Below, piece after piece: positions 1,100 to 28,301 of a stretch of DNA of 58,847 nt (positions are counted from its first letter, which is position 1; the number at the start of each line of letters is the position of its first letter). The translations under genes were made by a program, and so were the position numbers. Source of the DNA: a virus. Its lineage: Duplodnaviria > Caudoviricetes. Location: positions 1 to 58,847 of IMG/VR virus record IMGVR_UViG_3300009124_000013, one strand, 5' to 3'. The notes below the pieces were generated by a model, which had not been told where the DNA came from, made no database searches, and saw nothing but the letters and a program-made list of their open reading frames with translations.

Positions 1100-1129
1100 T
1101 TGACTAAATAATGTATGATGGTCTATAAT
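1100..1129 (+). promoter_or_regulatory. sigma70-type promoter for the riboswitch/peptide unit
   Basis: TTGACT-N18-TATAAT, placing +1 near 1136, immediately before the RNA motif; late-type CTAAATA also at 1104-1110. Confidence 0.7.
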
Positions 1130-1136
1130 GACCATA

Positions 1137-1176
1137 CGTTCATCCACTTCGGTGGACGCAAGTAAGTCGCGGAACG
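1137..1176 (+). ncRNA. glutamine riboswitch-like (glnA/Downstream-peptide class) motif 1
   Basis: P1 CGTTC/GAACG, P2 TCCAC-TTCG-GTGGA, then CGCAAGTAAG; matches the general layout of cyanobacterial glutamine aptamers. Confidence 0.65.
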
Positions 1177-1179
1177 GAG

Positions 1180-1430
1180 CGTTCATCCTATGCTTTCATT
1201 AGCACTCATCTTTTTTAGTCATGTCCCAGTGGAGAATTATCTTCGCTGTGATGACTATGAATGGTTAAAACAAGGATTGGAAGAGACAACTCTTTTCACT
1301 CCTTTTGAAAAAGCTGATATCCTCATTCATTGGATGGAACATACTGACCCAGCATGTTTCCTGCCAGAGGCATAGGACGCAAACGACTGAAGGAACGGGA
1401 GATTCAATTCACCCTAGTATTTCAGGAGTA
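1180..1430 (+). ncRNA. glutamine riboswitch-like motif 2, with an ORF inside the P2 loop
   Basis: CGTTCA-TCCTATGC (1180-1193) ... GCATAGGA-CGCAAACGACTGAAG-GAACG (1370-1397); lies directly upstream of a DUF4278-like peptide, the usual context of Downstream-peptide RNAs. Confidence 0.6.
1190..1375 (+). CDS. hypothetical 61-aa protein nested in riboswitch-like stem
   Basis: ORF track; GGAG 10 nt upstream; hydrophobic N-terminus, two Cys. Confidence 0.65.
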   Translation: MLSLALIFFSHVPVENYLRCDDYEWLKQGLEETTLFTPFEKADILIHWMEHTDPACFLPEA

Positions 1431-1435
1431 AAATC

Positions 1436-1600
1436 ATGAACACCCTCACTCTGATCAAAAAGCAGATCCAGAAGCAAGCAGCACTGCACGATGCACAAAT
1501 TTCTCACACCGCTTATCGTGGTGTAGTATATGAGTGCAAGCAAGGTGCTGAAGAAACTCATGGAACATTCTGCTACAGAGGTCACACCTATAATAAGTGA
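1436..1600 (+). CDS. DUF4278-like downstream peptide, 54 aa
   Basis: MNTLTLIKKQIQKQAALHDAQISHTAYRGVVYECKQGAEETHGTFCYRGHTYNK*: two YRGxxY motifs; AGGAG RBS. Not in the ORF track. Confidence 0.85.
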   Translation: MNTLTLIKKQIQKQAALHDAQISHTAYRGVVYECKQGAEETHGTFCYRGHTYNK

Positions 1601-1767
1601 TGGACTATCGATATCACTTTGATGATATGGATAGTGATAATAGACCTCCCGCATGTTATCAACTCAAATATAGAGGAGTAACATACTGGTCATGCTATAA
1701 GATTCACTTGCAGGAGTACTTCGAGCAATTGCTCGAAGTGCAACCCGTTTATAACCGAAGGGGTTGA
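1600..1767 (+). CDS. second YRGV-motif peptide, 55 aa
   Basis: MDYRYHFDDMDSDNRPPACYQLKYRGVTYWSCYKIHLQEYFEQLLEVQPVYNRRG*; TGATG coupling. Confidence 0.7.
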   Translation: MDYRYHFDDMDSDNRPPACYQLKYRGVTYWSCYKIHLQEYFEQLLEVQPVYNRRG

Positions 1768-1783
1768 CACCCCTTCTTTTTTT
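1757..1783 (+). terminator. intrinsic terminator with TTGACA loop
   Basis: GAAGGGG-TTGACA-CCCCTTC followed by T7. Confidence 0.85.
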
Positions 1784-26081: not shown

Positions 26082-26155
26082 GGGCGTGTAATCCAATAGG
26101 CAGAGATAGTTGACTTAAAATCAATCCAGTGTGGGTTCGACTCCCACCACGCCTA
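26082..26155 (+). tRNA. tRNA-Leu(TAA), short variable arm
   Basis: GGGCGTG/CACGCCT acceptor; GTTGA-CTTAAAA-TCAAT; GGTTCGACTCC. Confidence 0.9.
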
Positions 26156-26165
26156 TGGGGTTTCT

Positions 26166-26429
26166 ATGGAGTATCAAGTAAGATCAGAATATAGGTTTGT
26201 AGACACTGTTGGTATCGTTCTCGTCTATACCATAAATGGTATGGAGTTTGTATACGATGACATCAGTGATGAAGAACTTGCAGATCCTATGATTCAAGCA
26301 GTTGCTTCCCACGAACCTATACTCTCTGTAGAAACCTTAATCCGAAATAGTGAGTACCTCATTATGGAGGAAATGCATCCACTTCTGTTTCCAGTGGAAC
26401 TTGATGAGTATTCTGAATTGCCACCATGA
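26166..26429 (+). CDS. acidic hypothetical protein
   Basis: ORF track. Confidence 0.7.
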   Translation: MEYQVRSEYRFVDTVGIVLVYTINGMEFVYDDISDEELADPMIQAVASHEPILSVETLIRNSEYLIMEEMHPLLFPVELDEYSELPP

Positions 26430-27109
26430 TCACTAAAATCTTCTCACCGTTCTTTTATCAAACTAAATTAGAAGGACATTCTGAAAACCAGAAAAATATT
26501 ATACCAATTATTTTTGATGAATATTTTAAACAGAATGGTTCTAATACTGAAGGTGAGTGGGGGTGTGATTGCTTCACTACGTTTTTCGATAGGGATTTTG
26601 TAACATACGAACCATTAAAAACAGAAATTCAATCTGTTGTTCGTAAAATGTTTGAAGAACTAGAAATTAAACCATTTGCATACACAGTAGAGCAAATGTG
26701 GTTTAATGCCTATGGTGCAAAACAATCTCAAGAAGTTCATTGTCATACTGGACCATCTTTCTCTGGAATTTATTATTTACAATTTGATCCAGAAGTTCAT
26801 AAACCAACTACTTTTATGAATCCCATACGTTGGGGAGAATCAAAACGTCACAATAGGTTTTGGGATCCCAATTTGTGGAATTCGCAAAGTTTATATCATC
26901 ATTACCATGAACCTCAAGTTGAAGAGGGTGATGTTATTCTATTTCCCTCTGAAATGGATCATTATGTTCAACCATTCTTTAACTCAAATAAATTAAGAAT
27001 TACATGTTCTTTTAATGTATTTGTCTACACTCAATCTGAAGTTGACCTGTTGAGTTCTCAAAGAAAACCTATCCCTAGCGTAAAACCAATTTCTAAAGGA
27101 TTTGGATGA
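26426..27109 (+). CDS. putative 2OG-Fe(II) oxygenase
   Basis: WFN..HCH..SGIYY..EGDVILFPS..H.V..RIT.SFN. Confidence 0.85.
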   Translation: MITKIFSPFFYQTKLEGHSENQKNIIPIIFDEYFKQNGSNTEGEWGCDCFTTFFDRDFVTYEPLKTEIQSVVRKMFEELEIKPFAYTVEQMWFNAYGAKQSQEVHCHTGPSFSGIYYLQFDPEVHKPTTFMNPIRWGESKRHNRFWDPNLWNSQSLYHHYHEPQVEEGDVILFPSEMDHYVQPFFNSNKLRITCSFNVFVYTQSEVDLLSSQRKPIPSVKPISKGFG

Positions 27110-27303
27110 GTAAATACACATTTGGGGGGCTTGACAAAACCTCAATCAATGTGCTAAGATTGCTGAGTGAACTTGAAGGGTCATACCAACTCCTCAAGTA
27201 CATGGGATTCCAAGAAGACATGGATGCCATTTCTGAAATGAAACAGAGGTATTACAAACTCTATTATAAACTGAATAAAGAAGAGAAGAGCAAGGGGTTG
27301 TAG
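27106..27303 (+). CDS. hypothetical protein
   Basis: ORF track; last codons overlap the tRNA-Asp 5' end. Confidence 0.7.
   Translation: MSKYTFGGLDKTSINVLRLLSELEGSYQLLKYMGFQEDMDAISEMKQRYYKLYYKLNKEEKSKGL
27131..27160 (+). promoter_or_regulatory. internal sigma70 promoter for tRNA-talC unit
   Basis: TTGACA-N18-TAAGAT with TGn. Confidence 0.6.
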
Positions 27304-27367
27304 CTCAGTCGGTTAGAGCGCCTGCCTGTCACGCAGGAAGTCGAGGGTTCAAGTCCCTTCAGTCCCG
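27294..27367 (+). tRNA. tRNA-Asp(GTC)
   Basis: CCTGC-CTGTCAC-GCAGG anticodon arm; canonical D and T arms. Confidence 0.93.
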
Positions 27368-27370
27368 TAT

Positions 27371-27447
27371 GCCACTATAGCTCAGCTGGATAGAGCAACG
27401 GTTTTGTAAACCGTAGGTCGTCGGTTCAAGTCCGACTTGTGGCTCCA
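27371..27447 (+). tRNA. tRNA-Thr(TGT), CCA encoded
   Basis: ACGGT-TTTGTAA-ACCGT anticodon arm. Confidence 0.93.
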
Positions 27448-27520
27448 GGGGAATTAGCTCAGTTGGTAGAGCGCCTGCTTTGCAAGCAGGATGTCAGCGG
27501 TTCGAGTCCGCTATTCTCCA
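27448..27520 (+). tRNA. tRNA-Ala(TGC)
   Basis: CCTGC-TTTGCAA-GCAGG; G3:U70 identity pair present. Confidence 0.95.
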
Positions 27521-27560
27521 TTCGCTATTTCCGAATAGCGAATACATTATCAAATGCATT

Positions 27561-28220
27561 ATGAAACTTTTTCTAGACACTGCAGATACTGCCGTAGTCG
27601 CCAGGAAGTATTTTACTGGTCTGATTGATGGCGTGACGACAAATCCTACTCTTATTCGTAAGAGTGGTCGTGACCCCGAAGTGGTCTATTTCGAATTAAA
27701 AGAAATAGGTATTCGGGACATTAGTATGGAAGTTGATGGCAACTGGACAGAGATGCTTACTGAGGGTCGCCGTCTTCATGAGAAATTTGGAGACGTTGCT
27801 ACTATCAAAGTGCCATGTAACTACGATGGTTTAGTTGCATGTAAGTATCTTTCCGAATCTAACATTCGCGTTAATGTAACTCTTATCTTTAACGCAGCAC
27901 AAGCAATCCTTGCTGCTAAATCAGGTGCCACTTATGTGTCTCCTTTTGTTGGACGTTGTGATGACAACTCTATTGCAGGTGTTGAAGTAGTACGTTCTAT
28001 TGCTGAACTGTACCGAATCCAGGGTGTAAAAACTCAGGTTCTTGCTGCTTCTATTCGTGATGTATATAAGGTCACCCGTTCATTCTATAACGGTGCTGAC
28101 ATTGTGACTATGCCACCCGAAGTATTCGACAAGATGTATAAACATGTTTTGACGGATGCTGGACTGGCAATCTTTGAAAAAGATTTCACTCTGATTAAAT
28201 CAGAAGCAACTGACATTTGA
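27561..28220 (+). CDS. talC: transaldolase (TalC/FSA family)
   Basis: FLDTAD, GVTTNPTL, TIKVP, NVTLIF, YVSPFVGR, LAASIR. Confidence 0.96.
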   Translation: MKLFLDTADTAVVARKYFTGLIDGVTTNPTLIRKSGRDPEVVYFELKEIGIRDISMEVDGNWTEMLTEGRRLHEKFGDVATIKVPCNYDGLVACKYLSESNIRVNVTLIFNAAQAILAAKSGATYVSPFVGRCDDNSIAGVEVVRSIAELYRIQGVKTQVLAASIRDVYKVTRSFYNGADIVTMPPEVFDKMYKHVLTDAGLAIFEKDFTLIKSEATDI

Positions 28221-28229
28221 TAATGTCAT

Positions 28230-28301
28230 TCCTCTGTAGCTCAGCGGTAGAGCTATCGACTGTTAATCGATTGGTCCCTGGTTCGAATCCAGGCGGAGGA
28301 G
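28230..28301 (+). tRNA. tRNA-Asn(GTT)
   Basis: TCCTCTG/CGGAGGA acceptor; ATCGA-CTGTTAA-TCGAT. Confidence 0.93.

Follow-up and report, generated by a model that had tools for sequence, protein, structure and literature searches.

A translated gene nested in the hairpin loop of a glutamine-riboswitch-type leader RNA of cyanophages

Introduction

Riboswitch aptamers are usually regarded as compact domains without coding content, and phages are said to make little use of riboswitches. Protein genes inside structured RNA are well known from group I and group II introns, which carry homing endonuclease or maturase genes in their peripheral loops, and two sensor units in one leader are known from the glycine riboswitch, a tandem riboswitch. 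Folding that decides whether a gene is translated is known from leader-peptide attenuation and from the maturation gene of phage MS2, whose start codon is controlled by delayed long-range folding of the RNA. Here we describe a locus that resembles each of these in part. It lies near the beginning of a 58,847-nt stretch of DNA from a T4-like cyanophage (Duplodnaviria; Caudoviricetes; IMG/VR record IMGVR_UViG_3300009124_000013, positions 1 to 58,847), which we call the window, and it carries a fold of the glutamine-riboswitch type that is split by a translated gene and yet keeps compensatory pairing over a long range.

The closest described relatives are the glutamine riboswitches. Glutamine-I RNAs are defined by a loop-E motif (Huang 2019, PMC6698751), and glnA RNAs have been described in tandem (Weinberg 2010). 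They have been modelled as ON switches, in which glutamine binding frees the ribosome-binding site, and linked to DUF4278 genes (Klahn 2018, PMC6212724; Huang 2019, PMC6698751). McCown 2017 gives only two glutamine aptamers in cyanophage genomes. A search of the full-text literature, with the supplements of Weinberg 2010 and Klahn 2018 outside it, turned up no account of a glutamine aptamer that encloses a gene, nor of the interlocked topology discussed below. In what follows we report the nested-gene layout and how far it is conserved, show that the gene is coding, identify the pairing partners of the flanking strands, and then consider what such an RNA might do.

Results

A gene inside a hairpin loop

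Over the region read (700–1900), the window contains two units built on the same frame. The first, motif 1 at 1137–1176, is compact and reads CGTTCA-TCCAC-TTCG-GTGGA-CGCAAGTAAGTCGC-GGAACG. The second, motif 2, is split. Its 5′ half (1180–1193) consists of CGTTCA followed by the arm TCCTATGC (1186–1193), and its 3′ half (1370–1397) of the arm GCATAGGA (1370–1377), CGCAAACGACTGAA and GGAACG, the stretch that follows the 3′ arm, up to 1397, reading CGCAAACGACTGAAGGAACG. The arm GCATAGGA is the perfect complement of TCCTATGC, giving 8 bp with 176 nt between them. An open reading frame (ORF) of 61 aa begins with the ATG at 1190–1192, in the 5′ arm, and ends with the TAG at 1373–1375, in the 3′ arm. 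A first-pass annotation of the window had described exactly this: a whole gene in the loop of a glutamine-riboswitch-like fold, with the start and stop regions forming the stem. On re-reading, its coordinates for motifs, arms, ATG, TAG and ORF were all exact, and the same perfect arms at the same distance were measured. The closing stem, P2b, extends to 11 bp with two G-U pairs (1186–1196/1367–1377), for a duplex energy of −15.3 kcal/mol. The layout that the annotation proposed is also borne out by the relatives of the locus, in which the gene is intact and the arms form duplexes, as follows.

By its pattern of substitution, the 61-aa ORF is a real, conserved and translated gene. A protein-based scan of viral contigs gave 218 relatives of the nested ORF, of which the best 80 were used, and among 95 sources the 90 related loci that have both halves all keep an intact ORF of 54–66 aa. 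Over 65 distinct sequences, the ratio of nonsynonymous to synonymous polymorphism (pN/pS) has a value of 0.225 in the frame of the ORF, whereas the shifted frames give 0.969 and 1.781, and the first, second and third codon positions are variable in 32, 24 and 52 of 57 columns. For codons 2–13 after the ATG in the arm the ratio is 0.185, and synonymous changes of Leu, Ala, Ile and Phe codons are numerous there, so translation begins at that ATG. A Shine-Dalgarno-like GGAG lies at 1176–1179, 10 nt before the ATG. In 82 of 90 nested loci the linker that precedes the second CGTTCA has GGAG at its end, compared with 5 of 119 loci of the compact type described below. The gene ends in one of two ways. 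In 21 of the 90 loci the stop is a TAG in the 3′ arm, as in the window, and in the other 69 it is a TGA within the conserved string ACGACTGAAGG, where it overlaps the J3/1 GAAG point (ACTGAAGG). The two types differ by a single base (TAG versus CAG or AAG), and the CGCAAA junction strand is conserved even in the TAG-type loci, where it is untranslated.

The encoded protein matches phrog_13397 (E 9.4e-41, residues 1–57 against a 64-position profile). Its AF2 model is small and helical, with a mean pLDDT of 83.5 and helices at residues 2–10, 20–32 and 38–50, and two Cys residues are invariant across the alignments. A Pfam search gave no family, Foldseek against the PDB found no fold match at E up to 0.001, and a search of the ESM Atlas returned only unnamed clusters, with scores of 0.85.

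The relatives also indicate that the closing stem P2b is under selection, as judged by sequence covariation and duplex energies. All 44 distinct arm pairs of the phrog_13397 family form duplexes (−7.2 to −15.6 kcal/mol), with a mean of −11.65 kcal/mol for cognate arms, −9.17 for non-cognate arms and −5.16 (sd 2.15) for shuffled arms. In a wider set of loci, 100 distinct arm pairs around the second loop (position 2) average −10.0 kcal/mol, against −7.3 for non-cognate and −5.3 for shuffled pairs, and 16 arm pairs around the first loop (position 1) average −10.8, against −5.6 and −4.5. Alternative synonymous codons for Leu2 (CTT or TTA) are matched by different C-terminal codons that preserve the pairing, and the fourth pair of the stem covaries: U-A in 67 sequences, C-G in 2 and U-G in 1 on alignment A3; on alignment A5, 46 sequences have C-G and 9 have U-A. 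Complementarity of the arms across cyanophage homologues, for which the first-pass annotation had proposed a check, is thus kept. Because the hairpin closes around the gene, folding of the sensor and translation of the nested gene should compete on one mRNA.

Compact relatives and the glutamine aptamer

At Rfam gathering level the whole window returned only tRNAs, with no glutamine riboswitch in the leader region. In a permissive search of the 701 bases 1000–1700, motif 1 scored 28.6 bits against Glutamine-II (RF01704; cut-off 33, E 5.6e-5) and, over 1135–1180, 27.4 bits against Glutamine (RF01739; cut-off 35, E 1.1e-3), and the split second unit had no Rfam match. The full element of the window is 261 nt long, and its 176-nt insert is beyond the span of the RF01739 model.

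Natural compact relatives without a nested ORF served as loop-less equivalents. Compact versions, in which the same 5′ and 3′ halves enclose only a short hairpin, were located by a pattern scan in at least 120 viral contigs. Among the matches listed, the first unit precedes the second in the compact loci with upstream sequence (115 of 120), and in the 80 compact loci inspected a YRG-peptide-type gene is next downstream. Five of the 14 compact loci scanned pass the RF01739 cut-off of 35 (45.9, 45.9, 45.0, 39.6 and 35.6 bits), and all five align as one aptamer spanning both units: P1 is formed by the first CGUUC and the last GAACG, P2 by the first hairpin, J2/3 by CGCAAGUA, which is aligned to the RF01739 consensus CGGAAGUA, and P3 by AGU...ACU, followed by GAAG. 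The other nine have their best matches on the second unit alone, at 32.6–34.6 bits, and against Glutamine-II the compact relatives score 28.5–32.1 bits (cut-off 33). The two halves of loop E fall in different units, AGUA (1161–1164) in the first and GAA in the second; some relatives have AAAG where the window has GAAG.

With loop-less natural relatives matching the Rfam glutamine model, the description of the fold as glutamine-riboswitch-like is supported. The expectation that standard covariance scans would miss the nested form also held, both in the window and in five phage genomes, four of which have one glutamine-type locus each at E up to 0.01 (none has more than one), none of them above the Rfam cut-off, in line with the low count of McCown 2017. 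We infer that the phage element may bind glutamine and could serve as a nitrogen toggle.

Loop genes and their distribution

Positions 900–1800 of the window match 424 phage records, all of them Synechococcus or Prochlorococcus cyanophages, and all 14 cyanophage isolate loci examined share the layout. The gene in the loop varies. At least three unrelated small-protein families, phrog_13397, phrog_504 and phrog_6471, occupy one or both hairpin loops. In most relatives phrog_504 fills the second loop, and 27 of 120 loci with a compact second unit (among the matches listed) have a long first hairpin around a phrog_6471 gene of 65–67 aa with its stop in the 3′ arm. Between the position-1 and position-2 families no homology was detectable (hhalign probability 2.8%). 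Both loops are filled in three of the contig loci (L227, L307 and L320) and in the model phages Syn9, with gp196 and gp197 ahead of gp198, and P-HM2, with PHM2_179 and PHM2_180. By tblastn over 50,697 phage records, the downstream peptide is found in 373, phrog_504-like genes in 311, phrog_6471-like in 52 and phrog_13397-like in 41, counts that make the nested form the usual state in cultured cyanomyoviruses. In a prokaryote genome collection, a DNA pattern for the junction string occurs in six stretches, all metagenome bins or phage-sized contigs, so nothing in the collection points to the element in genuine cyanobacterial genomes.

Metatranscriptome contigs from four runs of four studies cover approximately 1155–1700, with no cover upstream of 1124; such contigs hold no information on transcript ends and may include DNA carry-over, and neither that gap nor the depth is given any weight here. 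Joints in them from 1189 to 1374 were considered as splicing and rejected, since they are compact relatives.

Several loci vary in other ways. Four of them (L011, L014, L091 and L340, the last being Syn9 574–606) have one more conserved hairpin, about 30 nt long (ACGGATCC-stem-GAAA-stem-GAGAAGGTT), after the last GGAACG and before the Shine-Dalgarno sequence. In L034, L222, L257 and L270, ACTGAAGGAAACACTTTTATAAATAAAAGTGT comes after the last strand; it repeats part of the junction and adds a hairpin, and beyond it lies a further CGTTCATCC start, which suggests rearranged or additional units. A weak phrog_6471-like match (35% identity, E 1e-4) also occurs at an unannotated spot of NC_020878.1 (P-GSP1, 44,945 bases), a short-genome Prochlorococcus phage outside the T4-like group.

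The variety of loop genes bears directly on the main rival to a coupling between gene and fold, one we consider unlikely: that the genes are passengers. The loops would then be tolerant slots, the genes would borrow the early promoter, and the arms would be complementary only for the sake of riboswitch folding, with no selected coupling. The unrelated families, the fact that either loop or both can be filled, and the compact forms, which are common and also occur in the same metatranscriptomes, all speak for this rival, as does the formation of P2b without ligand in the energy model. The fit between gene and stem is less easily accommodated. The ORFs fill the loops completely, and in 90 of 90 loci the gene stops within a conserved part of the riboswitch. 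Loci of the phrog_13397 type had been selected for placement of the ATG in the arm, but in the 40 position-2 pairs of other families that were examined (of 54 such pairs among the 100) the ATG is likewise in the arm, starting 4 nt into it in 39 pairs and 5 nt into it in one. In the phrog_13397 group the GGAG linker is specific to the nested form, and all 69 distinct elements with the strand swap discussed below, which abolishes tandem pairing, carry a nested gene. The physical exclusion between a translating ribosome and the fold holds irrespective of any selection for it.

Which strands pair

Two arrangements of the four P1-type strands have to be compared. In the tandem arrangement, which was that of the first-pass annotation, two independent aptamers each close their own P1 (1137–1141/1172–1176 and 1180–1184/1393–1397), with the gene in the P2 loop of the second. 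In the interlocked arrangement the outermost strands pair with each other and the two inner strands form a central hairpin. For the window and 118 other distinct elements all four strands are consensus and both pairings are possible, which leaves room for the tandem model, as does the resemblance of each unit alone to the Rfam models (27.4–34.6 bits).

The variants separate the two. In the window-family set of 71 distinct sequences, four have GCAACG as the 3′ strand of the first unit and CGTTGA as the 5′ strand of the second, which amounts to two mismatches under the tandem model and to one compensated pair under the interlocked model. Among the matches listed in viral contigs, the 120 loci with a base other than G at the innermost position of the first unit's 3′ strand all carry C there; 114 of them have the compensating G 9–11 bases downstream, across nine different linkers, and in the remaining six the second half is entirely missing. 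All four strands could be read in 69 distinct elements. Under the interlocked model their innermost pairs are Watson-Crick in 69 of 69, and under the tandem model in 0 of 69. In seven of these 69 the first strand is also CGTTT and the last AAACG, a second compensated pair, this time in the long-range outer P1.

A set of 55 sequences (the window, L012, L014, all seven CGTTT elements and the first 45 of 61 others) was scored in full. The tandem model pairs 86.3% of cells and breaks each innermost pair in 52 of 55 sequences, compared with 99.2% of cells paired under the interlocked model and 100% for P3; the central hairpin pair is C-G in 52 and G-C in 3. Since the 120-locus and 55-sequence sets were preselected for a change in one of the four strands, the informative point is where the compensation sits. 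P3 itself is pair-compatible in 226 of 227 distinct elements, with AGTCG/CGACT in 203 and one G-U pair in 23. In P-HM2 (L341) both P3 strands, at 591–598 and 783–790, read AGCCGACU, so that AGUCG/CGACU is replaced by a helix of 8 bp in which two positions are A-C mismatches.

Judged by this covariation, the leader shows one interlocked fold and not two side-by-side aptamers. The part of the first-pass annotation in which CGTTCA at 1180 pairs with GGAACG at 1392–1397 as a second P1 was therefore not upheld: 1180–1184 covaries with 1172–1176, and the 1393–1397 strand, claimed for a second independent aptamer, covaries with 1137–1141. The tandem model is further disfavoured by the single units scoring below the Rfam cut-off when the spanning reading scores above it, by the division of AGUA and GAA between the units, and by a constrained fold 2.5 kcal/mol less stable than the interlocked one; we regard it as improbable. 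In the interlocked fold, two three-way junctions would share P3, the inner one probably being a circular permutation of the aptamer core with the central hairpin as its P1. RNAalifold on alignment A3 proposed another partner for the first strand, GGACG of the 3′ arm, which was rejected because it shows no covariation and conflicts with the interlocked pairs.

The least probable of the rivals, that the nested form is no longer a working sensor and its halves are relics (for example, homology arms for exchange of small-gene cassettes between co-infecting phages, or a stem for mRNA stability or processing), would suit the variable genes within conserved flanks, the degenerate or truncated loci (six without the second half, and L034 with GGAACA) and the lack of an Rfam match for the full nested element, but it leaves unexplained that the long-range outer P1 is compensated (C-G to U-A) across a gene of about 160 nt, that GGACGCA[A/C]ACGACTGAAGGAACGG, from the GGA of the 3′ arm through outer P1, is invariant but for the A/C in the 21 loci where it is untranslated, and that the element sits upstream of DUF4278-like genes just as cellular glutamine riboswitches do.

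Folding and a proposed mechanism

The 310-nt leader folds with a minimum free energy (MFE) z-score of −3.27, and none of 100 shuffles folds as well. In the ligand-free partition function P2b, P2a and the central hairpin all form readily (probabilities in Table 1). The probability that the nested AUG is unpaired is 0.07 when the transcript ends at 1230, 0.39 when it ends at 1300, 0.20 when it ends at 1360, and 0.00 from 1380 on; for the initiation region as a whole (1186–1200) the value falls from 0.52–0.55 to 0.13. Since P2b closes in this purely thermodynamic model whether or not ligand is present, the nested start codon may be controlled by the timing of transcription rather than by glutamine.

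The leader also has a putative expression platform. UUUCAG, which pairs with CUGAAG in the MFE fold, abuts the Shine-Dalgarno sequence AGGAG (1424–1428) of the downstream peptide gene, and its pairing with CUGAAG excludes P3 and loop E. In RNAalifold these pairs vary between G-C and G-U only, with one double change. GUUCAU at 1138–1143 is moreover the exact complement of AUGAAC at 1436–1441, the start of the peptide gene, and the two are paired in the MFE fold (probability 0.82). In the folding model, this pairing could be a second way to hide the peptide start when P1 is open; relatives whose peptide gene starts with ATGGCA or ATGTCA lack the complementarity.

These elements suggest the following sequence of events. 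On nascent RNA the nested AUG would stay unpaired for about 180 nt of transcription, and ribosomes could load. Once the 3′ arm has been made and the site is free of ribosomes, P2b would close and bury the AUG, and only then could P3 and outer P1 dock, stabilised by glutamine. Docking would pull CUGAAG off UUUCAG and so free the Shine-Dalgarno sequence of the DUF4278-like (IF17-like) peptide gene, an ON switch like that of cyanobacterial gifB. Ribosomes on the last codons of the nested gene would block docking; in most relatives they would terminate on the UGA inside CUGAAG. The nested protein and the riboswitch-controlled peptide would then be products of alternative states of one mRNA. We tentatively propose, as a possibility we do not rate as high, that a single glutamine sensor with two interlocked cores is present in most T4-like cyanophages and works as a co-transcriptional timer and a nitrogen toggle, with exchangeable loop genes translated only from nascent or glutamine-poor RNA and a glutamine-synthetase-inhibitor-like peptide made only after closure at high glutamine.

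Surrounding features

The features of the locus are collected in Table 1. Transcription probably starts near 1136, just 5′ of the first riboswitch strand, and a TTGACT...TATAAT pair is also found upstream of the first CGTTCA in the relatives inspected. The element precedes two YRG peptide genes; their products score 20.2 and 16.7 bits against DUF4278, both below the cut-off of 25.3.

Table 1. Features of the leader and its surroundings. Pair probabilities are from the ligand-free partition function.
Feature	Position	Strand	Remarks
Sigma-70-type early promoter	1100–1129	+	TTGACT, 18-nt spacer, TATAAT; 11 of 12 consensus matches
Outer P1, 5′ strand	1137–1141	+	CGTTC; partner 1393–1397; innermost pair (55 sequences): C-G 48, U-A 7
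P2a hairpin	1143–1156	+	TCCAC-TTCG-GTGGA; compact hairpin of outer core; pair probability 0.83
J2/3	1157–1164	+	CGCAAGTA; AGUA half of loop E at 1161–1164; invariant in alignment A3
P3, 5′ strand	1165–1169	+	AGTCG; partner CGACT at 1384–1388
Central hairpin	1172–1184	+	GAACG-GAG-CGTTC; P1-like helix of proposed inner, circularly permuted core; pair probability 0.78
P2b, 5′ arm	1186–1196	+	TCCTATGCTTT; holds nested start codon; pair probability 0.92
Nested gene	1190–1375	+	61 aa; phrog_13397
P2b, 3′ arm	1367–1377	+	GAGGCATAGGA; holds TAG stop codon
Inner junction strand	1378–1383	+	CGCAAA; in alignment A3 only the fifth base varies (A/C)
P3, 3′ strand	1384–1388	+	CGACT
Putative expression platform	1387–1428	+	CUGAAG (1387–1392) pairs with UUUCAG (1420–1425) in MFE fold
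J3/1	1389–1392	+	GAAG; GAA half of loop E
Outer P1, 3′ strand	1393–1397	+	GAACG
First YRG peptide gene	1436–1600	+	54 aa, two YRG motifs; phrog_545, E 2.4e-33
Second YRG peptide gene	1597–1767	+	56 aa; ATGA overlap with first
Intrinsic-terminator-like hairpin and T run	1757–1783	+	Hairpin at 1757–1776; ends transcription unit

The terminator (GAAGGGG-TTGACA-CCCCTTC and a T run) doubles as the next promoter: over 1757–1792, the TTGACA in its loop and a TATAAT beyond a 17-nt spacer agree with the consensus at 12 of 12 bases, and the TTGACA contains the TGA stop of the second peptide gene. Elsewhere in the window, 3871–3959 matches the Rfam tRNA-Sec model at 49.2 bits (cut-off 47). ARAGORN reads it as a tRNA-Ser with anticodon UGA, and we therefore take it as a tRNA with a long variable arm and not as evidence of selenocysteine. 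A cluster of five more tRNA genes lies at 26082–28301.

Discussion

Together with the mechanism proposed above, our best explanation is that 1136–1445 is the leader of an early cyanomyovirus mRNA, of glutamine-I type and with two interlocked cores, an explanation to which we give about as much credence as doubt. A number of points weigh against it. The full element of the window itself never reaches an Rfam cut-off (the 27.4 bits belong to the first unit alone), and the 3′ half taken alone (1368–1402) has no glutamine match, only a chance snoRNA at E 0.59. The topology depends on two covarying pairs, perhaps on as few as two mutational events, in the preselected sets; P3, which both cores would share, varies only by G-C to G-U changes and one A-C mismatch, with no double compensation. 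In the nearest-neighbour model outer P1 and P3 have a probability of nearly zero, and the constrained interlocked fold, at −83.9 kcal/mol, lies 8.9 above the MFE of −92.8, a difference for which ligand and tertiary energy would be needed. As to the nested gene, many relatives of the phrog_504 type have a GTTC linker without a Shine-Dalgarno sequence, the stability of P2b without ligand means that glutamine may not control the gene at all, and the common compact forms imply that the switch does not need it.

If the fold does bind glutamine, phage riboswitches would have been under-counted because of such inserts and would be far commoner than covariance scans report, and phage early expression would be tied to the nitrogen status of the host. 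The leader would also be a natural case of translation set against ligand sensing on one RNA, and a whole gene could serve as the loop of a metabolite aptamer. That the model phages Syn9 and P-HM2 are among the carriers of the nested layout brings the question within reach of cultured systems.

Among known RNAs the closest is Glutamine-I (the glnA RNA, RF01739), for example the Synechocystis gifB/IF17 leader (Klahn 2018, PMC6212724), which has the same CGUUC/GAACG P1, unpaired A and UCC..GGA hairpin. Both have a three-way junction with loop E and a GAAG before the 3′ strand, the phage J2/3 is close to CGGAAGUA, both lie in the 5′ leader of a gene for a small protein, in the phage a weak DUF4278 match, and the compact phage relatives pass the cut-off of the model. 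In the phage element, however, P3 is not a simple hairpin but carries a second, permuted core, the P2-type loop or loops hold translated genes, J2/3 reads CGCAAGUA, and the element is found almost only in phage DNA. Glutamine-II (Downstream-peptide, RF01704), known from marine picocyanobacteria (Huang 2019, PMC6698751), shares the CGUUCA..GGACGCA..GGAACG blocks, the downstream YRG (DUF4278-like) peptides and the host group. Its defining pseudoknot in the second hairpin is not evident in the phage element, whose second hairpin aligns poorly, and the Glutamine-I model fits the phage elements better.

More distant parallels concern the layout. Tandem riboswitches likewise have two sensor-like units in one leader; the phage units instead exchange P1 strands and share P3. 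Introns with genes in their loops likewise place a protein gene in a loop of a structured RNA that must refold around it. No intron family was found at gathering level in the window, nor at E up to 10 in 1000–1700, and the phage element differs in being no ribozyme, in encoding helical peptides of about 60 aa instead of nucleases, and in having the start and stop codons in conserved stems. The proposed timing is nearest to MS2 and to attenuation, in which a start is open only on nascent RNA or translation of an upstream ORF decides the downstream fold; in the phage leader, by contrast, the competing fold would be of the metabolite-sensor type, and the ORF encodes a conserved protein rather than a short sensor peptide.

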